DNA of 32,015 nt from a virus (IMGVR_UViG_2706794662_000017), one strand, 5' to 3'; shown: positions 3,479 through 30,058, numbered from the stretch's first letter. A program made the numbers and translations. The notes: a model not told the origin generated them from the letters alone.

Positions 3479-3755
3479 NNNNNNNNNNNNNNNNNNNNNN
3501 NNNNNNNNNNNNNNNNNNNNNNNNNNNNNNNNNNNNNNNNNNNNNNNNNNNNNNNNNNNNNNNNNNNNNNNNNNNNNNNNNNNNNNNNNNNNNNNNNNNN
3601 NNNNNNNNNNNNNNNNNNNNNNNNNNNNNNNNNNNNNNNNNNNNNNNNNNNNNNNNNNNNNNNNNNNNNNNNNNNNNNNNNNNNNNNNNNNNNNNNNNNN
3701 NNNNNNNNNNNNNNNNNNNNNNNNNNNNNNNNNNNNNNNNNNNNNNNNNNNNNNN
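3479..3755. other. Run of N (277 nt, masked or unsequenced)
   Basis: Literal N characters; hides the orf83 end and the start of A. Confidence 1.
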
Positions 3756-5830
3756 TCCGGCGCAATAAAAGCCCGGTGCACGGGTTTTATTTCCTCACAT
3801 CCACTTTTCAGCGTCGTTTATGGCCGCGCATTGAGCGTGTGAATCAGCGCCATGAAATGAACACCGACGCGTCGATGCTGTTTCTGGCTGAGCGTGACCA
3901 CTATGCGCGCCTGCCGGGAATGAATGACAAGGAGCTGAAAAAGTTTGCCGCCCGTATCTCATCGCAGCTTTTCATGATGTATGAGGAACTCAGCGATGCC
4001 TGGGTGGATGCGCATGGCGAAAAAGAATCGCTGTTTACGGATGAGGCGCAGGCTCACCTCTATGGTCATGTTGCTGGCGCTGCACGTGCTTTCAATATTT
4101 CCCCTCTCTACTGGAAAAAATACCGTAAAGGACAGATGACCACGAGGCAGGCATATTCTGCCATTGCCCGTCTGTTTAACGATGAGTGGTGGATTAGTCA
4201 GCTTAAAGGCCAGCGTATGCGCTGGCATGAGGCGTTACTGATTGCTGTCGGGGAGGTCAATAAAGACCGTTCTCCTTATGCCAGTAAACATGCCATTCGT
4301 GATGTGCGTGCACGCCGCCAGGCAAATCTGGAATTTCTTAAATCGTGTGATCTCGAAAACAGGGAAACAGGCGAGCGCATCGACCTTATCAGTAAGGTGA
4401 TGGGCAGTATTTCTAATCCTGAAATTCGCCGGATGGAGCTGATGAACACCATTGCCGGTATTGAGCGTTACGCCGCCGCAGAAGGTGATGTGGGGATGTT
4501 TATCACGCTGACCGCGCCGTCAAAGTATCACCCGACACGTCAGGTTGGAAAAGGCGAAAGTAAAACCGTCCAGCTAAATCACGGCTGGAACGATGAGGCA
4601 TTTAATCCAAAGGATGCGCAGCGTTATCTCTGCCGTATCTGGAGCCTGATGCGCACGGCATTCAAGGATAATGATTTACAGGTCTACGGTTTGCGAGTCG
4701 TCGAGCCACACCACGACGGAACGCCGCACTGGCATATGATGCTTTTTTGTAATCCACGCCAGCGTAACCAGATTATCGAAATCATGCGTCGCTACGCGCT
4801 CAAAGAGGATGGCGACGAAAGAGGAGCTGCGCGAAACCGTTTTCAGGCAAAACATCTTAATCGGGGCGGTGCTGCGGGGTATATCGCGAAATACATCTCA
4901 AAAAATATCGACGGCTATGCACTGGATGGGCAGCTCGATAACGATAGCGGCAGACCGCTGAAAGATACTGCCGCGGCTGTTACCGCATGGGCGTCAACGT
5001 GGCGCATTCCGCAATTTAAAACGGTTGGCCTGCCGACAATGGGGGCTTACCGTGAACTACGCAAATTGCCTCGCGGCGTCAGCATTGCTGATGAGTTTGA
5101 CGAGCGCGTCGAGGCTGCACGCGCCGCCGCAGACAGTGGTGATTTTGCGCTGTATATCAGCGCGCAGGGTGGGGCAAATGTCCCGCGCGATTGTCAGACT
5201 GTCAGGGTCGCCCGTAGTCCGTCGGATGAAGTTAACGAGTACGAGGAAGAAGTCGAGAGAGTGGTCGGCATTTACGCGCCGCATCTCGGCGCGCGTCATA
5301 TTCATATCACCAGAACGACGGACTGGCGCATTGTTCCGAAAGTGCCGGTCGTTGAGCCTTTGACTTTAAAAAGCGGCATCGCCGCGCCTCGGAGTCCTGT
5401 CAATAACTGTGGAAAGCTCACTGGTGGTGATACTTCGTTACCGGCTCCCACACCTTCTGAGCACGCCGCAGCAGTGCTTAATCTGGTAGATGACGGTGTT
5501 ATCGAATGGAATGACCCGGAGGTTGTGAGGGCGCTCAGAGGTGCATTAAAACACGGACTGAGAAGACCAAACCGTCAGCAAAGAAACGGAAGCCCGTTAA
5601 AACCGCATGAAATAGCGCCATCGGCCAGACTGACCCGGTCGGAACGAATGCAAATTACCCGTATCCGCGTTGACCTTGCTCAGAACGGTATCAGGCCGCA
5701 GCGATGGGAGCTTGAGGTGCTGGCGCGTGGGGCAACCGTAAATTATGACGGGAAAAAATTCACTTACCCGCTCGCTGATGAGTGGTCGGGATTCTCAACA
5801 GTATTAGAGTCAAACTCAGTGAAGCGTTAA
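3545..5830 (+). CDS. A: Replication initiation protein A (P2 gpA-like rolling-circle nickase); start lies inside the masked region
   Basis: Readable portion 3756..5830 resembles P2 gpA as I recall it; HUH-type motif (TPHWHMM) and downstream tyrosine motif (YIAKYISK); start estimated assuming a P2-length protein and an exact-length N-run. Confidence 0.85.
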   Translation, partial: XXXXXXXXXXXXXXXXXXXXXXXXXXXXXXXXXXXXXXXXXXXXXXXXXXXXXXXXXXXXXXXXXXXXXXXRRNKSPVHGFYFLTSTFQRRLWPRIERVNQRHEMNTDASMLFLAERDHYARLPGMNDKELKKFAARISSQLFMMYEELSDAWVDAHGEKESLFTDEAQAHLYGHVAGAARAFNISPLYWKKYRKGQMTTRQAYSAIARLFNDEWWISQLKGQRMRWHEALLIAVGEVNKDRSPYASKHAIRDVRARRQANLEFLKSCDLENRETGERIDLISKVMGSISNPEIRRMELMNTIAGIERYAAAEGDVGMFITLTAPSKYHPTRQVGKGESKTVQLNHGWNDEAFNPKDAQRYLCRIWSLMRTAFKDNDLQVYGLRVVEPHHDGTPHWHMMLFCNPRQRNQIIEIMRRYALKEDGDERGAARNRFQAKHLNRGGAAGYIAKYISKNIDGYALDGQLDNDSGRPLKDTAAAVTAWASTWRIPQFKTVGLPTMGAYRELRKLPRGVSIADEFDERVEAARAAADSGDFALYISAQGGANVPRDCQTVRVARSPSDEVNEYEEEVERVVGIYAPHLGARHIHITRTTDWRIVPKVPVVEPLTLKSGIAAPRSPVNNCGKLTGGDTSLPAPTPSEHAAAVLNLVDDGVIEWNDPEVVRALRGALKHGLRRPNRQQRNGSPLKPHEIAPSARLTRSERMQITRIRVDLAQNGIRPQRWELEVLARGATVNYDGKKFTYPLADEWSGFSTVLESNSVKR

Positions 5831-5916
5831 CTCAATAAATATGAGTTTATAAGTTAGGCCTCGAGATTTTGTAGAAAGGGATGTATACTGAGTATCGTAT
5901 AGATTTGGAGTGAGTG

Positions 5917-6939
5917 ATGACTGTAAAGGTGATAGACCTTTTTTGTGGTGCTGGCGGATTAACTCATGGTTTGCAGCTTGCGGGGCTTGATGTCGTTGCA
6001 GGCATTGACCTTGAGGGGGAATGTAGGTTTCCCTATGAAAGAAACAATAAATCTAAGTTTATTGAGCAAGATATCGCTAAAGTAACAAAAGAGGAACTGC
6101 TGAGGCTTTATGGTGATGCGTCTGTAAAAGTATTGGCAGGATGCGCACCTTGCCAACCTTTTTCAAAATATACTCAAGGAAAAGATAAGGCTGATGATAA
6201 AAAATGGCCTCTTCTTTATGAGTTCGAACGTTTAATTCGCGAAGTATCTCCAGAAATCGTAACAATGGAGAACGTTCCTGATGTAACTAAACATAAAGTT
6301 TATAATGATTTTTATAATTCATTGTTAAAGTTGGGCTATTATGTTTGGGCGTCTAAGATTGATTGTGTCGAATATGGAATCCCACAAAACCGTTCCCGTC
6401 ATGTATTGTTGGCCTCAAAATTGGGGGCGATTGAGTTAGTAAAACGTGACGATGTTATTTTGAAAACAGTTAGAGATGCAATAGGAAATCTTCCTCCATT
6501 AGAAGATGGCCAAACAGATCCAAATGATATATTACATAGAGCCAGTAAATTAAATCCGATTAATAAAAAAAGAATTATACACTCTGTTCCTGGTGGTACA
6601 TGGAAGGACTGGCCGAAAGAGTTGGTTGCCGCTTGTCATATGAAATCCAGCGGTAAAGGGTATGCTAGTGTATATGGGCGCATGTCTTGGGATAAGCCAA
6701 GTCCAACAATTACAACTCTTTGTTATGGTTTCGGGAATGGGCGTTTTGGACATCCAGAACAGCATAGAGCGATTTCTCTTAGAGAGGCTGCTTTATTGCA
6801 AACTTTCCCGATGGATTATATTTTTGTAGAAGACAAAAACAAGTTTGTTATAAGAAGTATTGGGAAAATGATAGGTAATGCTGTTCCTGTGGAACTAGGA
6901 AAAGCAATTGGGCAATCAATCAAGAACCATTTAGAATGA
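5917..6939 (+). CDS. DNA (cytosine-5)-methyltransferase, complete, no adjacent restriction endonuclease recognised
   Basis: Motif I DLFCGAGG, motif IV PCQPFS (catalytic Cys), motif VI ENV, motif VIII QNRSR, motif X GNAVPV; ATG 5917 with GGAG 6 nt upstream; AT-rich relative to the phage backbone. Confidence 0.85.
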   Translation: MTVKVIDLFCGAGGLTHGLQLAGLDVVAGIDLEGECRFPYERNNKSKFIEQDIAKVTKEELLRLYGDASVKVLAGCAPCQPFSKYTQGKDKADDKKWPLLYEFERLIREVSPEIVTMENVPDVTKHKVYNDFYNSLLKLGYYVWASKIDCVEYGIPQNRSRHVLLASKLGAIELVKRDDVILKTVRDAIGNLPPLEDGQTDPNDILHRASKLNPINKKRIIHSVPGGTWKDWPKELVAACHMKSSGKGYASVYGRMSWDKPSPTITTLCYGFGNGRFGHPEQHRAISLREAALLQTFPMDYIFVEDKNKFVIRSIGKMIGNAVPVELGKAIGQSIKNHLE

Positions 6940-6945
6940 TAAAAT

Positions 6946-6962
6946 GGCCTGCTTTACAGGCC
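6946..6962. terminator. Hairpin GGCCTG-CTTTA-CAGGCC between convergent genes (possible bidirectional terminator)
   Basis: Perfect 6-bp stem with 5-nt loop, flanked by A/T-rich sequence, lying between the methyltransferase stop (6939) and the minus-strand gene stop (6969). Confidence 0.35.
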
Positions 6963-6968
6963 TTATAA

Positions 6969-7649
6969 CTATTGTTCTAAATATTCATTATTATTTATAT
7001 AGTGCTCTATATTATTCACGATAGCATCAAGATAGGCGATTACTTCTAATGAAATATTCTCTAAGTCCTGATATGAAACATTTTTTCCAATCTCAGCAAA
7101 TGATACATTGCCATGAGATAAATCATTACGATGTTGTTTAACAGTGGCTAATTTTTCACCATGTTTAGTGTGAGTGTAATCGGAATGTGTAGAAAAACCA
7201 TATATTTTCGATTTTTCTTTGATTTCCTCTCTATCAATATTTCCTGAGAATATTTTCTTTTTGTTGAACGTGCCATAAGATATACCGCAAGATATACCTT
7301 TGGTAAGGTGATTAACTAAACTTTCAACATTTACAGATTCATTTTTTAATCTTTTTAATATTTCTGACCTGAGATTTTTCCTGAGTTTGTCAAATTCTAC
7401 GTTTCTATCATAAATAGTCTCATGAATAAGGCAGATAGCTTCTCTCATTGTTGATTCAATGAGGTTATATAACAGTATATATACTGCTCCCTTTAGAGTT
7501 TTTCGTGATTGAGCAGTAATGGAGAACTTATGTTCTTTATCATCAGCTGATATCAGTTCTGCACCGGCATACTCAATAAATTTCAAAAGATCCAAATAGG
7601 CCAAGATCTCTCCTGACCTTTCGTCAAAATCCTCACGAAAACGATCCAT
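6969..7649 (-). CDS. Hypothetical 226-aa protein with C-terminal Rx4H motif (putative HEPN-like nuclease); second gene of a two-gene operon
   Basis: ATG 7647-7649 with AGAGGA RBS 5 nt upstream, located inside the 3' end of the upstream gene; R-N-D-L-S-H at residues 174-179 (nt 7113-7130); function is inferred from the motif only. Confidence 0.55.
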   Translation of the reverse strand: MDRFREDFDERSGEILAYLDLLKFIEYAGAELISADDKEHKFSITAQSRKTLKGAVYILLYNLIESTMREAICLIHETIYDRNVEFDKLRKNLRSEILKRLKNESVNVESLVNHLTKGISCGISYGTFNKKKIFSGNIDREEIKEKSKIYGFSTHSDYTHTKHGEKLATVKQHRNDLSHGNVSFAEIGKNVSYQDLENISLEVIAYLDAIVNNIEHYINNNEYLEQ

Positions 7650-7650
7650 G

Positions 7651-8793
7651 TTAATCCTCTAATAATTTATCCCGAACATATTCAATTCGTTCAATTACCT
7701 TCACGCGACTATTAGCTCCGTCGGAAGTGGTCAATCGTTTGAATTCTTCTGAGCTTAGCCAATCTAAGTTCTTGGGAACAAGGTCAGGGACTTCACGTAA
7801 TGCAAGTGCTGCGCCAACAGCGAGAGATTCGAATCTAACTCGAGGTGTAGATTTTGCAGTAATAGTTTTCTTGAATCCTGCTGGGAAATAGTTTTCAACA
7901 AAAGATAGAACATTAGCAAACTCTTGTTTCATTGAGTTTTGTTTAGTTTCGTCTATATCTCGATTTTCTGACATATAGTCATTTAGAAAATCCCGTACGG
8001 AATGATCAAAGTTCTTGTACTTATCTACGTAGGCAAAGAATCTTAATGTAAATTCTAACCGTTCATCTCGTTTTTCTTTAGTCTGAGATAAAGGTGCTAA
8101 TTCTTTAAATTTAGGTATTGTTGAGCATGGCTTAATAACCTGTGTATATAAATTTGTTGAACCAAGTTCTGATCCTTTACGGACTTCCATATCTTTCAAT
8201 ATATCGCTGCCAGAGTTAATACGCTCAAAAAGATCTCTACGGGTTTCTTCATTGCATTTAGAACTCAATTCTATAACGCGGACAGGAATTCTCATGAAAC
8301 GACGTTGACGTGATAATGGTAAATCTTGGAATTTGAAACCATTAAGGACGTCTAAAGATTTCAGGTCTTGTAAAACTAATTCATTTTGGATAAAAGCGTG
8401 TATAGTCCTAACTCGTTGTGAGCCATCAACAATCTCAATTCGCCCATCTAAATCGGGATCTTCGGAGAGAACATCTGCTATAAATATATATGGTATAGGA
8501 AAACCCAAAATCAAAGACTCTATCAATTTTGATTGTCTTTTTTCACTCCAAACAAAATCCCTTTGATAATCAGGAACAAAGAGTTCGTTAGTATCATCCT
8601 CTAATCCGTTATGATACTTATTAACTAATAACTCAACGGTAAATTCTTTGGTCTCAAAATCCACATCCTTTTGCTCAGCACGAATTTGCTCTTCAGCGTT
8701 TTGCTTTATCACCTCTAGCTGAGCAAGCAACTCTGCTCTTTTCTTGGCATTATCTTCATTTTCTAGTTGAGATTTTAAATCAATAATGTCCAT
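7651..8793 (-). CDS. DUF262 (ParB/Srx-like, GmrSD N-terminal-type) domain protein; first gene of a two-gene operon
   Basis: Signature motifs FVPDYQRDFVW, GFPIPYIF and IVDGSQRVRTI (DGQQR variant); preferred start ATG 8791-8793 with AGGGA RBS 7 nt upstream (the ORF track extends to a TTG at 8811); stop is 1 nt from the downstream gene start; no DUF1524/HNH-like C-terminal domain recognised. Confidence 0.75.
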   Translation of the reverse strand: MDIIDLKSQLENEDNAKKRAELLAQLEVIKQNAEEQIRAEQKDVDFETKEFTVELLVNKYHNGLEDDTNELFVPDYQRDFVWSEKRQSKLIESLILGFPIPYIFIADVLSEDPDLDGRIEIVDGSQRVRTIHAFIQNELVLQDLKSLDVLNGFKFQDLPLSRQRRFMRIPVRVIELSSKCNEETRRDLFERINSGSDILKDMEVRKGSELGSTNLYTQVIKPCSTIPKFKELAPLSQTKEKRDERLEFTLRFFAYVDKYKNFDHSVRDFLNDYMSENRDIDETKQNSMKQEFANVLSFVENYFPAGFKKTITAKSTPRVRFESLAVGAALALREVPDLVPKNLDWLSSEEFKRLTTSDGANSRVKVIERIEYVRDKLLED

Positions 8794-8978
8794 GTCTAGT
8801 TCCCTTAACAAGTGTTAAAAATTGAAGCGGATAGCATACCGCATAGATCATGAAAAATGCCATCATGTGCATGGATTTGCATGCGTCAGAAGTCGCTTTT
8901 ATTGTTAGTTATCACTAGCGCTGGCGTGCTCTTGGAGTGTTCATGCAACTGCATTAAAACCGCCCCATGAAGCGGGCG

Positions 8979-17899: not shown

Positions 17900-18422
17900 G
17901 TTTAAGCGTTTTGAAGACAGGCTGACCGGACTTATTGAGTCGCTGTCACCGTCAGGGCGTCGGCGACTGAGCGCCGAACTGGCGAAACGTCTGCGTCAGA
18001 GTCAGCAGCGTCGGGTGATGGCACAGAAAGCCCCGGACGGCACACCCTACGCACCACGCCAGCAGCAGAGCGCCAGAAAAAAGACCGGTCGCGTTAAGCG
18101 AAAAATGTTTGCGAAACTTATCACCAGTCGTTTTTTGCATATCCNNNNNNNNNNNNNNNNNNNNNNNNNNNNNNNNNNNNNNNNNNNNNNNNNNNNNNNN
18201 NNNNNNNNNNNNNNNNNNNNNNNNNNNNNNNNNNNNNNNNNNNNNNNNNNNNNNNNNNNNNNNNNNNNNNNNNNNNNNNNNNNNNNNNNNNNNNNNNNNN
18301 NNNNNNNNNNNNNNNNNNNNNNNNNNNNNNNNNNNNNNNNNNNNNNNNNNNNNNNNNNNNNNNNNNNNNNNNNNNNNNNNNNNNNNNNNNNNNNNNACCC
18401 GGCGGCATCCTTCCCGTTATGA
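17892..18422 (+). CDS. S: Tail completion protein S (P2 gpS); 3' part inside masked region
   Basis: N-terminal 84 aa readable and gpS-like; reading frame continues through the N-run to a stop overlapping the V start (ATGA); the true end could lie inside the N-run. Confidence 0.7.
   Translation: MNEFKRFEDRLTGLIESLSPSGRRRLSAELAKRLRQSQQRRVMAQKAPDGTPYAPRQQQSARKKTGRVKRKMFAKLITSRFLHIXXXXXXXXXXXXXXXXXXXXXXXXXXXXXXXXXXXXXXXXXXXXXXXXXXXXXXXXXXXXXXXXXXXXXXXXXXXXXXXXXXXXXPAASFPL
18145..18396. other. Run of N (252 nt, masked or unsequenced)
   Basis: Literal N characters inside S and upstream of V. Confidence 1.
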
Positions 18423-23166: not shown

Positions 23167-23694
23167 ATGCAGCATTTGATAAATATAACGGCAGGTAATC
23201 CAAAAACGGTTGAACAATATCAATTGACAAAGGACTTTGATGTTGTCTGGTTTTTTTCAGAAGATGGTAAGAACTGGTACGAAGAACAAAAGTATTTTGC
23301 TGATGACACGATAAAAATAGCGTACGACAAAGATAATATTATCCGCTATGTGGAAAAGGATGTGACAGCTATCAGACCGGATGGATTAAGTGTTGTTGAA
23401 GTGCCGGATATTACTGCTAACCGACGGGCGGACATTTCAGGGAACTGGATGTTTAAGGACTGTACAGTGATTAAACGAATTTATACGGCAGAGGAATTGC
23501 AGCAGCAGGCAGAAAATCGGAAAGCCAGACTTCTTGCAGATGCTGAATCCGTGATTTTGCCGCTGGAGCGCGCTGTCAGGCTGAATATGGCAACAGATGA
23601 GGAGCGCAGTCGACTGGAGGCATGGGAACGCTACAGTGTTCTGGTCAGTCGTGTGGATCCTGCAAATCCTGAATGGCCGGAAATGCCGCAATAA
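23167..23694 (+). CDS. G: Tail fibre assembly chaperone (P2 gpG)
   Basis: 175 aa; N- and C-termini (MQHL..., ...[13 protein letters not shown]) match P2 gpG as I recall it. Confidence 0.85.
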
Positions 23695-23776
23695 GTTGTA
23701 TGAGCTCTGGTGTGAGCTTACATATCTATGGCACAGAGTAAAGCCTAATCTGAGAGTCCGCTCTGTGCCAGAAGTA

Positions 23777-23805
23777 GACGCACAAGGTGGGCGTGTCTTT
23801 TTCTT
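23777..23805 (+). terminator. Putative rho-independent terminator after the V-G late operon
   Basis: GC-rich imperfect hairpin GACGCAC...GGCGTGTC followed by TTTTTCTT on the plus strand, between the G stop and the convergent cargo gene. Confidence 0.35.
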
Positions 23806-23808
23806 AAG

Positions 23809-25227
23809 CTACATCGGGCTCTTATATGGGGAATGAGAGTTTTTGAAACGCGGTTCTTCATGCTTCGGACTGTAAATTCTTGCATGATTATCTATCACAA
23901 CTTTACTTCCAAGAATATCTCGAGCTTCTCCTAACGACCACACAGTAGAAAGATCATTAGTCAAATTTCGATAGAGAGCACGAAACCCCTTGGGTTTTTT
24001 AAGATCATATAAGAAATCAGGAACTTTAACTTTAAAATTAAAGGTCGGTAGTTTCGGAAGGGAATTAATAGCCGCAACAGTATTGTATACATGTACAAGC
24101 TTAGTTACAGGTACACCTTGTCTAGTCTTGAGCCCATACTTAGTTCGAATATAATCTGATTCTTTCGATACTTCAGTAAGCAATGCTCTTACTGACTTAT
24201 TAGCTTGAGGCAATTCATTTTCATCAAACAAGCGCTTTATTTCTCGCATTTTCTCACGGGCCCTTACAAATTCGTTGTTGTCCCTTATGTTATAAGCAGC
24301 TTCAACAATACAACTTGGATCACCAGTTTCTTTTGCGAGCCATGCCGAAAATAAAGGAAGCGAAGTTGCTGTTGCTACAGCTTTACCACCAGAATGAATA
24401 TCAATGAGATCATGACTTAACGAAGTGGAAAAGTTTTCTACAATATGTTTAGCATAGTCAAAACCATACTGACAGTTTTGGCTTAAATATGTCTGTTGAT
24501 ACGCCTGACGTAATGGATATAAAAAAGTATCTGCTTGAAGGTACTTAGCTGTGAGAGAATAAAATACTGCCCGATTAGCCAGCCATACAAGCGAAGCCAC
24601 GAATGCTTTGATTGCATCTGATGCTTCACCAGCAGATGTGCCATCCCCCCATTTTGCTCCGGGAACTTTGTACCCCTTGCGAATAGGGTTGCCAAATCGA
24701 TCGAGAAGTTCAACATCGCCATTTGTTCTATTACCAGACTCAGCAGCATCACGCAGTTCTGAAAAAATGGCAGCAGCAATGTTACCATATTTTTCAAACT
24801 CCTTACCTCCATCAGATAAGTTCTTCAGTGTTAGATGATAAACACTTGAACTAATGTCCCATGTACATATGATATGTGTCTGAAGAAGTTCAATTAGTTT
24901 TTTAAAATCGTCATTAACAAATGTTCCACCACGAATTTTAGGTTTCAATGCATCAGATATTTTTTTTGCTTCACTTTCAATTTCATCCAACCCATATTGT
25001 GCTTTATCAAGAAATAATATCTCTCTGAAACTTGAAATCCTACTCCCACGGTACTCTGGAATATAATCATCAACCGCGATAACGTGATCATAGAACAAAA
25101 TAGACTGTATATAGTTCTCAAATGCTATTATGTCTGTATCTACTGAGTCCTTCGATCTTGTTTTTACTTTCCCCTCGATTCTTTGGACTGCAGTTAGAGT
25201 TGAATTATCAATCAGTGCGTATGTCAT
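23809..25227 (-). CDS. Hypothetical 472-aa protein, AT-rich cargo gene at the P2 Z/fun variable locus; function unknown
   Basis: Long uninterrupted minus-strand ORF antisense to both flanking late operons; ATG 25225-25227 with AAGGAA RBS 5 nt upstream; no P2 structural counterpart; no catalytic motif recognised with confidence. Confidence 0.7.
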   Translation of the reverse strand: MTYALIDNSTLTAVQRIEGKVKTRSKDSVDTDIIAFENYIQSILFYDHVIAVDDYIPEYRGSRISSFREILFLDKAQYGLDEIESEAKKISDALKPKIRGGTFVNDDFKKLIELLQTHIICTWDISSSVYHLTLKNLSDGGKEFEKYGNIAAAIFSELRDAAESGNRTNGDVELLDRFGNPIRKGYKVPGAKWGDGTSAGEASDAIKAFVASLVWLANRAVFYSLTAKYLQADTFLYPLRQAYQQTYLSQNCQYGFDYAKHIVENFSTSLSHDLIDIHSGGKAVATATSLPLFSAWLAKETGDPSCIVEAAYNIRDNNEFVRAREKMREIKRLFDENELPQANKSVRALLTEVSKESDYIRTKYGLKTRQGVPVTKLVHVYNTVAAINSLPKLPTFNFKVKVPDFLYDLKKPKGFRALYRNLTNDLSTVWSLGEARDILGSKVVIDNHARIYSPKHEEPRFKNSHSPYKSPM

Positions 25228-25496
25228 TTACATTCCTTAAATAAAAAACATTAATGGTTGCTCCAAAAATACTAGCAACCTTATTTCAGTGAAGTCAATT
25301 TTTTAACATTAATCATTTACACACGCTTGAAAAGTGATCGCTGAAAATGGCATTTACTACATTATCAAAGTTCCCATCGAAGATAATCGAAATTTTTCCC
25401 GGTAGCAGATATCGTGAGATTTAACGCTTTTCGCTCATAGCAGGCTGTCAGATTTGATAGCGTTTGGGCTATGTAAACTGTCAGTCGGAAAATGAG

Positions 25497-25514
25497 TGTG
25501 TACAAATCAGGACA
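25497..25514 (+). promoter_or_regulatory. TGT-N12-ACA dyad, candidate Ogr-dependent late promoter element upstream of FI
   Basis: Exact TGT(25497-25499)-N12-ACA(25512-25514) about 125 nt upstream of the FI start; a dyad of this form centred near -55 is the reported P2 late promoter element. Confidence 0.3.
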
Positions 25515-25545
25515 TGCGGGCGAATTGCCCGCATTTTCTTTATCT
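25514..25545 (+). other. Perfect palindrome ATGCGGGCGAATTGCCCGCAT followed by TTTTCTTT (terminator-like hairpin, or a binding site)
   Basis: 8-bp stem with 5-nt loop plus T-rich tract, read directly; role unclear because it lies between the putative late promoter dyad and FI. Confidence 0.3.
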
Positions 25546-25637
25546 GTTGTTTCATCCACTGACCAGCCAGGTCAAATAGCGTCTCATGCACTGCCCAACA
25601 GAAAATAGTTGCACCCATTAACCACGGAGTTAAACGG

Positions 25638-26828
25638 ATGAGTGACTATCATCACGGCGTGCAGGTGCTGGAGATTAACGACGGCACCCGCGTCATTTCC
25701 ACCGTATCCACTGCCATTGTCGGCATGGTCTGCACGGCCAGCGATGCGGATGCGGAAACCTTCCCCCTCAATAAACCGGTGCTGATTACCAATGTGCAGA
25801 GCGCAATTGCAAAGGCCGGTAAAAAAGGCACGCTGGCGGCATCGTTGCAGGCCATCGCCGACCAGTCAAAACCGGTCACCGTTGTCGTGCGTGTGGAAGA
25901 CGGCACCGGCGACGACGAGGAAACGAAACTCGCGCAGACCGTTTCCAATATCATCGGCACCACCGACGAAAACGGTCAGTACACCGGACTGAAAGCCCTG
26001 CTGGCGGCGGAGTCGGTAACCGGTGTTAAACCGCGTATTCTCGGCGTGCCGGGACTGGACACCAAAGAGGTGGCTGTTGCACTGGCATCAGTCTGTCAGA
26101 AGCTGCGCGCTTTCGGGTATATCAGCGCATGGGGCTGTAAGACCGTTTCCGAGGTGAAAGCCTACCGTCAGAATTTCAGCCAGCGTGAGCTGATGGTCAT
26201 CTGGCCGGATTTCCTCGCATGGGATACGGTCGCCAGTACCACCGCCACCGCGTATGCCACCGCCCGTGCGCTGGGTCTGCGCGCTAAAATCGACCAGGAG
26301 CAGGGCTGGCATAAAACGCTGTCCAACGTCGGGGTGAACGGTGTTACCGGCATCAGCGCGTCCGTATTCTGGGATTTGCAGGAGTCCGGCACCGATGCTG
26401 ACCTGCTTAACGAGTCAGGCGTCACAACGCTGATTCGCCGTGACGGTTTCCGCTTCTGGGGTAACCGTACCTGCTCTGATGACCCGCTGTTCCTCTTTGA
26501 AAACTACACCCGCACCGCGCAGGTGCTGGCCGACACGATGGCTGAGGCGCACATGTGGGCGGTGGACAAGCCCATCACCGCAACGCTGATTCGCGACATC
26601 GTTGACGGCATCAATGCCAAATTCCGTGAGCTGAAAACAAACGGCTATATCGTGGATGCGACCTGCTGGTTCAGCGAAGAATCCAACGATGCGGAAACCC
26701 TCAAGGCCGGAAAACTGTATATCGACTACGACTATACCCCGGTGCCTCCTCTTGAAAACCTGACCCTGCGCCAGCGTATTACCGATAAATACCTGGCAAA
26801 TCTGGTCACCTCGGTTAACAGCAATTAA
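25638..26828 (+). CDS. FI: Tail sheath protein (P2 gpFI)
   Basis: 396 aa, P2 gpFI size and position. Confidence 0.95.
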   Translation: MSDYHHGVQVLEINDGTRVISTVSTAIVGMVCTASDADAETFPLNKPVLITNVQSAIAKAGKKGTLAASLQAIADQSKPVTVVVRVEDGTGDDEETKLAQTVSNIIGTTDENGQYTGLKALLAAESVTGVKPRILGVPGLDTKEVAVALASVCQKLRAFGYISAWGCKTVSEVKAYRQNFSQRELMVIWPDFLAWDTVASTTATAYATARALGLRAKIDQEQGWHKTLSNVGVNGVTGISASVFWDLQESGTDADLLNESGVTTLIRRDGFRFWGNRTCSDDPLFLFENYTRTAQVLADTMAEAHMWAVDKPITATLIRDIVDGINAKFRELKTNGYIVDATCWFSEESNDAETLKAGKLYIDYDYTPVPPLENLTLRQRITDKYLANLVTSVNSN

Positions 26829-27843: not shown

Positions 27844-30058
27844 CAATGTAAAATTACAGGTATTGCTCAGGGCTGTTGACCAGGCGTCCCGCCCGTTTAA
27901 ATCCATCCGCAGAGCGAGTAAGTTGCTGTCGGGGGATATCCGGGAAACACAAAAATCACTGCGCGAGCTGAACGGTCACGCATCCCGTATTGAGGGATTC
28001 CGCAAGACCAGTGCACAGCTCGCCGTGACTGGTCATGCACTTGAAAAGGCACGGCAGGAGGCCGAAGCCCTTGCCACACAGTTTAAAAACACCGAACGCC
28101 CGACCCGTGCTCAGGCGAAAGTGCTGGAATCCGCAAAGCGTGCGGCGGAGGACTTACAGGCGAAATATAACCGCCTGACAGATTCCGTTAAACGCCAGCA
28201 GCGGGAACTGGCCGCTGTGGGAATTAATACCCGCAATCTTGCACATGATGAGCAGGGACTGAAAAACCGTATCAGTGAAACCACCGCCCAGCTTAACCGG
28301 CAGCGTGACGCGCTGGCGCGTGTCAGTGCGCAACAGGCAAAACTTAACGCAGTCAAACAGCGTTATCAGGCCGGAAAGGAACTGGCCGGAAATATGGCCT
28401 CAGTGGGCGCTGCCGGTGTGGGGATTGCTGCTGCGGGAACGATAGCCGGAGTTAAGCTGCTGATGCCAGGTTATGAGTTTGCGCAGAAAAACTCAGAATT
28501 GCAGGCTGTGCTCGGTGTGGCAAAAGACTCCGCCGAAATGGCTGCACTCCGCAAGCAGGCGCGCCAGCTCGGTGACAACACCGCCGCCTCAGCGGATGAT
28601 GCGGNNNNNNNNNNNNNNNNNNNNNNNNNNNNNNNNNNNNNNNNNNNNNNNNNNNNNNNNNNNNNNNNNNNNNNNNNNNNNNNNNNNNNNNNNNNNNNNN
28701 NNNNNNNNNNNNNNNNNNNNNNNNNNNNNNNNNNNNNNNNNNNNNNNNNNNNNNNNNNNNNNNNNNNNNNNNNNNNNNNNNNNNNNNNNNNNNNNNNNNN
28801 NNNNNNNNNNNNNNNNNNNNNNNNNNNNNNNNNNNNNNNNNNNNNNNNNNNNNNAGAAATGCAGGCCAGCTTTGAGAAAAACCGGCTCGGTACTGCCCAG
28901 CAGGCCGAATACATGAAAACCATTTTCGGGGAGGAGGCCAGCTCAGCCGCCGCTGTGCTGATGACTGCCGCGTCAACCGGAAAGCTGGACAAACTGACCG
29001 CTGCGTTTAAAGCCTCAGACGGGAAGACCGCAGAGCTGGTAAATATCATGCAGGACAACCTCGGCGGTGACTTTAAGGAGTTTCAGTCCGCTTATGAGGC
29101 GGTGGGGACAGACCTGTTTGACCAGCAGGAAGGCGCGCTACGTAAGCTCACGCAGACGGCCACAAAGTATGTGTTAAAACTCGACGGCTGGGTACAGAAA
29201 AACAAATCACTGGCGTCAACCATTGGCCTCATTGCCGGTGGCGCGCTGGCGCTGACTGGCATCATCGGTGCAATTGGTCTTGTAGCCTGGCCGGTTATCA
29301 CCGGCATCAATGCCATCATCGCGGCAGCAGGCGCAATGGGGGCAATCTTCACGACGGTTGGTAGTGCCGTTATGACGGCCATCGGGGCGATTAGCTGGCC
29401 GGTTGTGGCTGTGGTGGCCGCCATTGTCGCCGGGGCGTTGCTTATCCGTAAATACTGGGAGCCTGTCAGCGCATTCTTTGGCGGTGTGGTTGAAGGGCTG
29501 AAAGCGGCATTTGCGCCGGTGGGGGAGCTGTTCACGCCACTGAAACCGGTGTTTGACTGGCTGGGCGAAAAGTTACAGGCTGCGTGGCAGTGGTTTAAAA
29601 ACCTGATTGCCCCGGTCAAAGCCACCCAGGACACCCTGAACCGTTGCCGTGACACGGGCGTCATGTTCGGGCAGGCACTGGCTGACGCGCTGATGCTGCC
29701 GCTTAATGCGTTCAACAAATTGCGCAGCGGCATTGACTGGGTACTGGAAAAGCTCGGGGTCATCAACAAAGAGTCAGACACACTTGACCAGACCGCCGCC
29801 AGAACTCATGCCGCCACGTATGGCACCGGTGGTTATATTCCGGCGACCAGCTCTTATGCAGGCTATCAGGCTTATCAGCCGGTCACGGCACCGGCTGGCC
29901 GCTCTTATGTGGACCAGAGTAAAAACGAATATCACATCAGCCTGACGGGTGGTACTGCACCGGGGACACAGCTTGACCGCCAGTTACAGGATGCGCTCGA
30001 AAAATACGAGCGGGATAAACGTGCGCGCGCCCGTGCCAGCATGATGCATGACGGTTAA
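27836..30058 (+). CDS. T: Tail tape measure protein (P2 gpT); internal 250-nt masked region
   Basis: 740-codon ORF; coiled-coil-rich N-terminus and Gly/Ala-rich hydrophobic central region; frame maintained across the N-run. Confidence 0.9.
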   Translation: MSNNVKLQVLLRAVDQASRPFKSIRRASKLLSGDIRETQKSLRELNGHASRIEGFRKTSAQLAVTGHALEKARQEAEALATQFKNTERPTRAQAKVLESAKRAAEDLQAKYNRLTDSVKRQQRELAAVGINTRNLAHDEQGLKNRISETTAQLNRQRDALARVSAQQAKLNAVKQRYQAGKELAGNMASVGAAGVGIAAAGTIAGVKLLMPGYEFAQKNSELQAVLGVAKDSAEMAALRKQARQLGDNTAASADDAXXXXXXXXXXXXXXXXXXXXXXXXXXXXXXXXXXXXXXXXXXXXXXXXXXXXXXXXXXXXXXXXXXXXXXXXXXXXXXXXXXXXEMQASFEKNRLGTAQQAEYMKTIFGEEASSAAAVLMTAASTGKLDKLTAAFKASDGKTAELVNIMQDNLGGDFKEFQSAYEAVGTDLFDQQEGALRKLTQTATKYVLKLDGWVQKNKSLASTIGLIAGGALALTGIIGAIGLVAWPVITGINAIIAAAGAMGAIFTTVGSAVMTAIGAISWPVVAVVAAIVAGALLIRKYWEPVSAFFGGVVEGLKAAFAPVGELFTPLKPVFDWLGEKLQAAWQWFKNLIAPVKATQDTLNRCRDTGVMFGQALADALMLPLNAFNKLRSGIDWVLEKLGVINKESDTLDQTAARTHAATYGTGGYIPATSSYAGYQAYQPVTAPAGRSYVDQSKNEYHISLTGGTAPGTQLDRQLQDALEKYERDKRARARASMMHDG
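28605..28854. other. Run of N (250 nt, masked or unsequenced)
   Basis: Literal N characters inside T. Confidence 1.

Follow-up and report, generated by a model that had tools for sequence, protein, structure and literature searches.

The Z/fun locus of P2-like prophages, which lies between the tail fibre genes and the tail sheath gene FI, is the closest described setting for the gene studied here. It has been termed the 'second defence-enriched locus', and three validated systems as well as fun come from it (Vassallo 2022, PMC9519451); Moura de Sousa et al. (PMC13586616) also place a defence hotspot among the tail genes of P2. Egorov et al. (bioRxiv 10.1101/2024.10.15.618418) describe the same hotspot as 'mixed purpose', with receptor-binding-protein swaps, invertases and defence-like genes, so position alone is no proof of defence. 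The DNA analyzed here is a 32,015-nucleotide (nt) stretch, IMGVR_UViG_2706794662_000017 (the window, to which all positions refer unless another locus is named), which derives from a P2-like prophage of Escherichia coli and carries a single antisense gene of 472 codons at this site, within positions 23695-25637. Its sequence and genomic settings suggest that this cargo is probably a new single-protein cassette for defence against phages or other mobile genetic elements (MGEs), expressed in the lysogen. On its own, an uncharacterized gene at a P2 hotspot would be no surprise. What sets this one apart is the breadth and conservation of its family, the lack of any matching family or fold despite a confident structural model, the clean one-gene architecture and the consistent company of defence genes.

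Compared with P2 Fun(Z) and the systems of Vassallo 2022 (PMC9519451), the cargo occupies the same site between the tail fibre genes and FI. As with other Z/fun cargo, it is compact, AT-rich and exchanged among otherwise near-identical P2-like prophages. Unlike the other alleles inspected between gene G and FI, it is larger (472 aa) and lies on the opposite strand. It shares no sequence similarity with the Fun-like 'lysogenic conversion protein', Wphi orf44, the DUF4145 protein or FIG00644420, and blastp with profile hmmsearch against five other G-FI alleles gave a best E-value of 0.035. It also matches no PADLOC model, those of the PD-T4, PD-Lambda and PD-T7 systems included. The DUF4238 protein (Rousset 2022, PMC9122126) is similar in being one protein with no recognizable catalytic domain, carried in a prophage hotspot and with homologues outside prophages. 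In contrast to that protein, the present cargo sits at G-FI rather than gpA-gpQ, is unrelated in sequence, has no Pfam DUF and is a candidate defence gene only.

The flanks of the site are present in 1017 of 5426 complete E. coli genomes, and this cargo was found in 7 of them, at the same site each time. The first-pass annotation of this DNA, a reading of the sequence alone, had placed single-gene cargo at the Z/fun (G-FI) exchange site, which agrees with the published defence-enriched hotspot (PMC9519451). Distant copies occur on four plasmids, and none of 50,697 isolated phage genomes carries the cargo at either the DNA or the protein level. E. coli 89-3156 matches positions 23695-25637 at 100% identity, and its record labels the middle gene a hypothetical protein. 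The features of the locus are as follows.

23167..23694, plus strand: left core gene, tail fibre assembly protein (P2 G), annotated in E. coli 89-3156
23729..23770, plus strand: 10-bp perfect inverted repeat (23729-23738 / 23761-23770), P2 backbone, just past G
23776..23806, no strand assigned: short hairpin with flanking A- and T-runs, located between G and the cargo gene, which converge (stem 23776-23798)
23780..25425, no strand assigned: foreign cassette of about 1.65 kb (promoter region, gene, 3' hairpin), delimited by the breaks in flank homology and the GC step
23809..25227, minus strand: cargo open reading frame (ORF), 472 aa, ATG start, stop codon inside the coordinates
25233..25238, minus strand: Shine-Dalgarno sequence AAGGAA, 5 nt upstream of the ATG
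25269..25298, minus strand: sigma-70-type promoter-like site, TTGACT, 18-nt spacer, TAGTAT, with an extended -10 TG
25509..25539, plus strand: stable G+C-rich hairpin with a trailing T-run, some 100 nt before FI (dG -17.9, z -4.53)
25638..26828, plus strand: right core gene, tail sheath (P2 FI), annotated in E. coli 89-3156

The cargo ORF is a real gene under purifying selection. With 472 open codons at 38% GC, hundreds of full-length homologues and a ratio of nonsynonymous to synonymous substitution rates (dN/dS) of 0.06-0.17 against close homologues, it is far beyond chance. Its GC content is 0.38 compared with 0.52 in the remaining window, with GC steps at about 23800 and about 25400. The ORF call and the neighbours annotated in E. 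coli 89-3156 thus uphold the minus-strand, AT-rich ORF of 472 aa between G and FI that had been proposed, and the claimed ribosome-binding site AAGGAA is present as well. The corresponding site reads AAGGAA in the Lonsdalea copy and GAGGGG in the Pantoea copy. The promoter-like site at 25269..25298 is identified only by its fit to the consensus, and sites of this kind are no more frequent here than in shuffled sequences; about 200 nt around it are conserved with the Lonsdalea and Pantoea cassettes.

The limits of the cassette were defined by comparison with three P2-like genomes that hold other cargo, namely Wphi (orf44), P2_2H1 (FIG00644420) and E. coli A23 (DUF4145). Homology to the backbone of all three stops at 23775-23779 and returns at 25425-25431, which gives a cassette of about 1.65 kb. 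The cassette occupies the place of different cargo in other P2-like phages, and the GC step matches its boundaries. The inverted repeat at 23729..23770, which had been offered as a flanking feature of the gene, is present and folds stably (dG -19.8, z -3.65), but it lies within backbone conserved in P2-like phages carrying other cargo and so does not belong to the cassette. The terminator-like hairpin reported after G exists and has its T-run, but in this copy it is no more stable than shuffled controls (stem 23776-23798, dG -6.4, z -0.09). Relatives have a better version with an 8-bp stem (GGACGCAC/GTGCGTCC). The hairpin at 23776..23806 looks like a bidirectional terminator that moves with the cassette.

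The cargo protein is predicted to be soluble (53 kDa, isoelectric point 8.6, no transmembrane segment). Searches of Pfam, NCBIfam and PADLOC gave no match even at E<=10, in keeping with the earlier impression that it has no conserved domain. The check for a known defence system that the first-pass annotation had proposed found none: across PADLOC-DB v2.0.0, which includes the Abi, PD-T4/T7/Lambda and PDC candidate families, 0 families matched at E<=10. Pfam searches with 74 diverse members, 10 of the most divergent members and 25 N-terminal domains gave scattered noise only. A sequence search of the Protein Data Bank (PDB) with three family profiles (A1, A2 and A7) gave coiled-coil or designed-repeat noise only. 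In PHROGs v4, the prophage-derived cluster phrog_13435 matched the full length (E 9.6e-294, positions 1-472 of 472); because this PHROG lacks a function or category, membership adds no functional information. Literature searches for the cargo accession, the PHROG identifier and the Desulfotalea locus tag gave no hits.

A search of 5.8 billion proteins found 282 matches. Of the 120 listed, most have a length of exactly 472 aa, at 51-100% identity; every named match is labelled 'hypothetical', and no match has a Pfam domain. Among the hosts are Pantoea, Serratia, Pectobacterium, Acinetobacter, Halomonas, Vibrio, Psychrobacter, Desulfotalea, Citrifermentans and Ca. Tenderia. When 1.84 billion cluster representatives were searched exhaustively with a profile, only 325 proteins came back. 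The full-length ones measure about 440-485 aa, the others are shorter fragments, and longer multi-domain proteins are absent from the set. Alphaproteobacteria are the main source of a second large clade, with members of about 459 aa. By these comparisons the cargo protein founds a closed, uncharacterized family of proteins of about 460-475 aa found in many phyla.

Conservation extends along the whole protein. In the close clade it runs from the MTYALIDN start to an invariant C-terminal KSPM. The positions that stay invariant, or nearly so, across 74 sequences with identities as low as 21% are D7, T10, R16, G19, D32, E37, D47, D53, D54, Y55, R63, W123, S128, R219, Y223, P238, R240, P291, R324 and G433. 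Strictness at the very last residues is unusual: the KSPM tail is encoded at 23809-23823, is modelled as a terminal strand, and is kept family-wide as K-x-P-M at >=80%. An R-x5-H pattern near the C-terminus had been noted as a weak hint; R448 and H456 do exist in the sequence, yet both residues vary across the family, and no R-x4-6-H is evident in the family's consensus sequences or conserved-column lists. No HEPN Pfam match was found among 84 full-length members, and given the variable R448/H456 a HEPN nuclease is not supported.

An AlphaFold2 model built with a deep alignment reached a mean predicted local distance difference test (pLDDT) score of 80.4 and a predicted template modelling (pTM) score of 0.85. 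In it, residues 1-137 form an N-terminal alpha/beta domain, the middle is helical and includes a long hairpin at 318-364, and the C-terminal section has several strands into which the tail packs. The model gave no significant fold match to solved structures. The remote-homology and fold check proposed in the first-pass annotation, made against the PDB with family profiles and the predicted structure, thus yielded no clear match to a known non-defence protein.

The invariant acidic residues (D7, D32, E37, D47 and D53/D54) are found on helix 2 and at or beside the termini of the first strands, and invariant arginines lie in the N-terminal domain and downstream (R16, R63, R219, R240 and R324). 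In the model this acidic and arginine cluster hints at a metal-dependent phosphoryl-transfer site. The site is proposed from the residue pattern, since no PIN, Toprim or other fold matched. Like PIN-like and Toprim/OLD-type metal nucleases, the protein combines an alpha/beta domain, acidic residues at or near strand ends and on the second helix, and conserved arginines, and its order of elements is broadly PIN-like. Unlike them, it has no sequence or fold match, and the later acidic positions expected of PIN are not conserved, so the likeness is a residue-pattern lead only. Two further assignments were rejected. A Pol-beta-type nucleotidyltransferase (G19-x10-D30-x-D32) was discarded, as the model puts D30 and D32 in a confident helix rather than a strand; a serine-recombinase-like N-terminus has neither a conserved serine nucleophile in register nor any matching family model.

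Genomic neighborhoods were compared in a locus scan based on a profile search with one genome per species. The scan returned 45 loci, with one copy per genome, which span Gammaproteobacteria, Nitrospira, Cyanobium, Verrucomicrobia, Chloroflexi, Clostridia, Bacteroidota, Leptospirales and about a dozen Pseudomonas species. The E. coli copy shares 73% identity with that of Nitrospira. The GC content of the gene is below that of its flanks in 45 of 48 loci, by 8.5 points on average. Neighbour clustering found no family common to more than 5 of 44 loci, those five all being Pseudomonas, and the cargo gene is therefore a standalone unit. As for an RNA partner, there was no Rfam hit of note, no tandem repeats and no unusual upstream fold (z 0.03). 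An RNA-dependent system such as a retron, a defence-associated reverse transcriptase or a type III toxin-antitoxin (TA) pair was rejected, with no reverse transcriptase domain, no noncoding RNA and upstream DNA that is conserved in close relatives only. P2 structural genes are found in 0 of 51 other loci.

The settings themselves vary widely and recurrently include defence and mobility genes. The carriers that support the defence reading are the P2 prophage, an integrative and conjugative element (ICE) in Serratia, an integrase/relaxase island in Pantoea and a serine-recombinase island in Mesorhizobium. The Serratia copy lies amid ICE transfer genes with IS3 copies, the Pantoea island also encodes an OLD-family nuclease, and the Mesorhizobium island has a PLD plus AAA_11/12 helicase pair and a RelA/SpoT-domain gene. 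Pseudomonas copies are found in variable islands with Hachiman, PIN_8, AAA_13, DUF4365 plus SMC/AAA_23, and ResIII proteins. The Desulfotalea copy adjoins MksBEF, a TrwC fragment lies near the Citrifermentans copy, and the Acinetobacter and Methylorubrum copies are inserts between housekeeping genes. In Pectobacterium brasiliense (L053/L054:8646-9881), a HEPN_Toprim_N plus HEPN_RiboL-PSP protein is encoded 120 bp upstream on the same strand, and TacA, CcdAB and an SMC/AAA_15 module are also nearby. Among the 150 nearest ORFs, the recurring PADLOC models are HamB, type IV restriction endonuclease, type I methyltransferase, AriA, AbiL, mad3 and PbeA. The defence islands thus described have Hachiman, OLD, HEPN-Toprim, Wadjet-like and Mokosh-like neighbours. 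Patchy distribution, foreign composition and variable neighborhoods rich in defence and mobility genes place the cargo in the class of accessory genes borne by defence islands or MGEs.

Some loci have features of their own. The Pectobacterium pairing with HEPN_Toprim is the sole possible two-gene arrangement seen, and it is not kept elsewhere. In the Pseudomonas clade (L028-L038 and L046; about 36% identity), the GC content of the gene is about that of its flanks, unlike nearly everywhere else, which suggests long residence in the variable defence islands of this genus. Upstream of the gene, four to five Pseudomonas species share a 1321-aa DUF4365 protein and a 958-aa SMC_N/AAA_23 protein.

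The cassette moves as a unit. At non-P2 loci in Lonsdalea, Pantoea and Serratia, the whole of it, from about 210 nt upstream to about 50 nt downstream of the gene, is present at 81-90% nucleotide identity; in distant relatives, nucleotide homology stops at the ORF. In four of these loci (L057:9769-11515, L008:9784-11468, L022:9781-11471 and L055:9780-11436, from Pantoea, Lonsdalea and Serratia), the cassette is accompanied by 15-65 nt of P2-backbone sequence. These scraps correspond to window positions 23713-23779 and 25425-25458, where backbone status is defined by sharing with phages that hold other cargo. The longest is in the Pantoea Cy-640 island, in which homology covers window positions 25458-23713 and includes the inverted-repeat hairpin; elsewhere the scraps are progressively shorter. 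They fit a transfer of the cassette between the P2-type hotspot and other elements by short-homology recombination, a route of cargo transfer that has been described in general terms (PMC13586616), and they look like the footprint of cargo shuttling between such a hotspot and ICE or integrase islands. An insertion sequence or transposon was rejected, with terminal inverted repeats no more frequent than expected by chance (2 of 47 loci score above shuffled controls, and the window likewise has none), one copy per genome and no transposase or recombinase Pfam domain. The copy of Pantoea sp. Eser, a stink-bug symbiont (L022:10001-11415), ends in PHLRVQ rather than KSPM, and its length of 1415 nt cannot be divided by three, which points to a probable frameshift or decay in this symbiont genome.

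The defence reading pictures a self-contained, mobile one-gene cassette in reverse orientation in the Z/fun hotspot, with a promoter-like site, a ribosome-binding site and a 3' hairpin. The gene would most likely be expressed in the lysogen, independently of the late operons, and the most likely role of its product is defence, by this one protein, against other phages or mobile elements. The acidic cluster of the highly conserved N-terminal domain and the arginines may form a metal-dependent phosphoryl-transfer site, for example that of a nuclease, a phosphodiesterase or a nucleotide-processing enzyme. The helical middle and the beta-rich C-terminal part, with its KSPM or K-x-P-M tail, could restrain this enzyme and sense infection. 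Activation would then stop phage replication, possibly at a cost to the cell, that is, with an abortive outcome. The candidate defence role suggested in the first-pass annotation is backed by the hotspot, the mobile elements and the defence neighbours elsewhere, but the R-x5-H and inverted-repeat hints that accompanied it did not hold. A further point in favour of defence is that the other hotspot of this prophage holds recognizable defence cargo.

Several points weigh against this reading. The defence call and the catalytic call both derive from context and residue patterns; no PADLOC, Pfam or NCBIfam model and no solved structure matches; and the hotspot holds non-defence cargo too (bioRxiv 10.1101/2024.10.15.618418). 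End-to-end conservation (50-90% identity across phyla, constant length) is above that of many fast-evolving immune sensors. Copies in Acinetobacter and Methylorubrum are lone islets with no defence neighbour, and the tally of defence neighbours is a raw count of co-occurrence. A weaker point is that the accession is absent from the text-form supplementary files of DefensePredictor.

A more far-reaching version of the idea, which we put forward tentatively, is that the cargo belongs to an unrecognized single-protein immune family, horizontally spread over many phyla and matching no solved fold, whose effector chemistry or sensing is itself new. The mechanism would then differ from nuclease, NADase, membrane and nucleotide-depletion modules, and the KSPM/K-x-P-M tail and the acidic pocket would be parts of it.

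The rival that survives best, while still unlikely, is a counter-defence or inter-element competition factor, which would aid its carrier element by disabling host immunity or a rival element and give the cell no protection. Such a role would suit cargo of several kinds of mobile element, including a copy amid ICE transfer genes in Serratia, and anti-defence genes do occur in a minority of P2 prophages (28 of 1511; PMC13586616). As defence and anti-defence genes co-localize, neighborhood evidence cannot separate the two. However, many copies are found in chromosomal defence islands or lone islets with no recognizable mobile element, and the gene is carried by 0 of the 50,697 isolated phage genomes, whereas virulent phages commonly have anti-defence genes. 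Furthermore, the orientation of the gene, opposite to that of the late operons, and its separate promoter-like site fit expression in the lysogen better than during infection.

Next in order, and again improbable, is the idea of an accessory gene of lysogenic conversion with no immune role, whose product, an enzyme or a regulator, would confer some other condition-specific benefit from the same exchange site. The mixed purpose of the Z/fun hotspot and the fact that about 90% of hotspot cargo families in phages are without annotation (bioRxiv 10.1101/2024.10.15.618418) favour it, as do the strong, enzyme-like conservation and the copies that sit between housekeeping genes. A niche-specific metabolic role is argued against by the patchy, single-copy occurrence over many phyla with low GC in 45 of 48 loci. 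The gene is never in an operon with metabolic or transport partners, and its recurring neighbours are defence and TA genes. Some explanation other than the defence readings and the rivals named here is given a small chance. Most doubtful is a selfish mobility or addiction gene, either a new type of transposase or recombinase or a toxin kept through post-segregational killing: the cassette does move as a unit, taking its backbone scraps of 15-65 nt into non-P2 loci, and a DDE/DEDD-type site is conceivable for the N-terminal acidic cluster, but terminal inverted repeats are lacking (2 of 47 loci above shuffles), each sampled genome has just one copy, no match to a transposase, integrase or resolvase model and no conserved antitoxin-like partner ORF or RNA was found, and nucleotide homology stops at the ORF in distant relatives.

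A defence role for the cargo would matter for several reasons. P2-type hotspots have repeatedly given new immune systems once unknown cargo was tested, and this is an unusually clean candidate, with one gene, strong purifying selection and a defined cassette of about 1.7 kb that includes its own promoter-like region and could be cloned directly. Its homologues number in the hundreds and range from Enterobacteria to Nitrospira, Cyanobium, Clostridia and Bacteroidota; in the family libraries searched it matched only a PHROG cluster without function. If the protein does protect against phages, it would represent a widespread new defence family missed by current annotation tools, and would offer a new protein fold and active site for characterization. 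The P2-backbone scraps in ICE and integrase islands are a concrete sequence-level example of hotspot cargo moving between element types.

Elsewhere in the window, runs of about 250 N at 18145-18396 (virion morphogenesis gene) and 28605-28854 (tape measure gene), and probably also within 3501-4000, are masked data; they mimic AT-rich pockets (GC 0.26-0.31) in the composition profile and are not biology. The other hotspot of the same prophage, on the gpA-gpQ side (5914-8811), carries recognizable defence cargo:

5914-6939, plus strand: C5 cytosine DNA methylase
6969-7649, minus strand: HEPN_MAE_28990 protein
7651-8811, minus strand: GmrSD_N protein (PADLOC NsnA, E 1.7e-54; PD-T4-2_A, E 2.5e-35)

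Finally, the stable hairpin at 25509..25539 falls inside the flank conserved with Wphi and P2_2H1 and is thus backbone. As every other allele inspected is on the plus strand, this hairpin may insulate the FI late promoter against read-through from plus-strand cargo.

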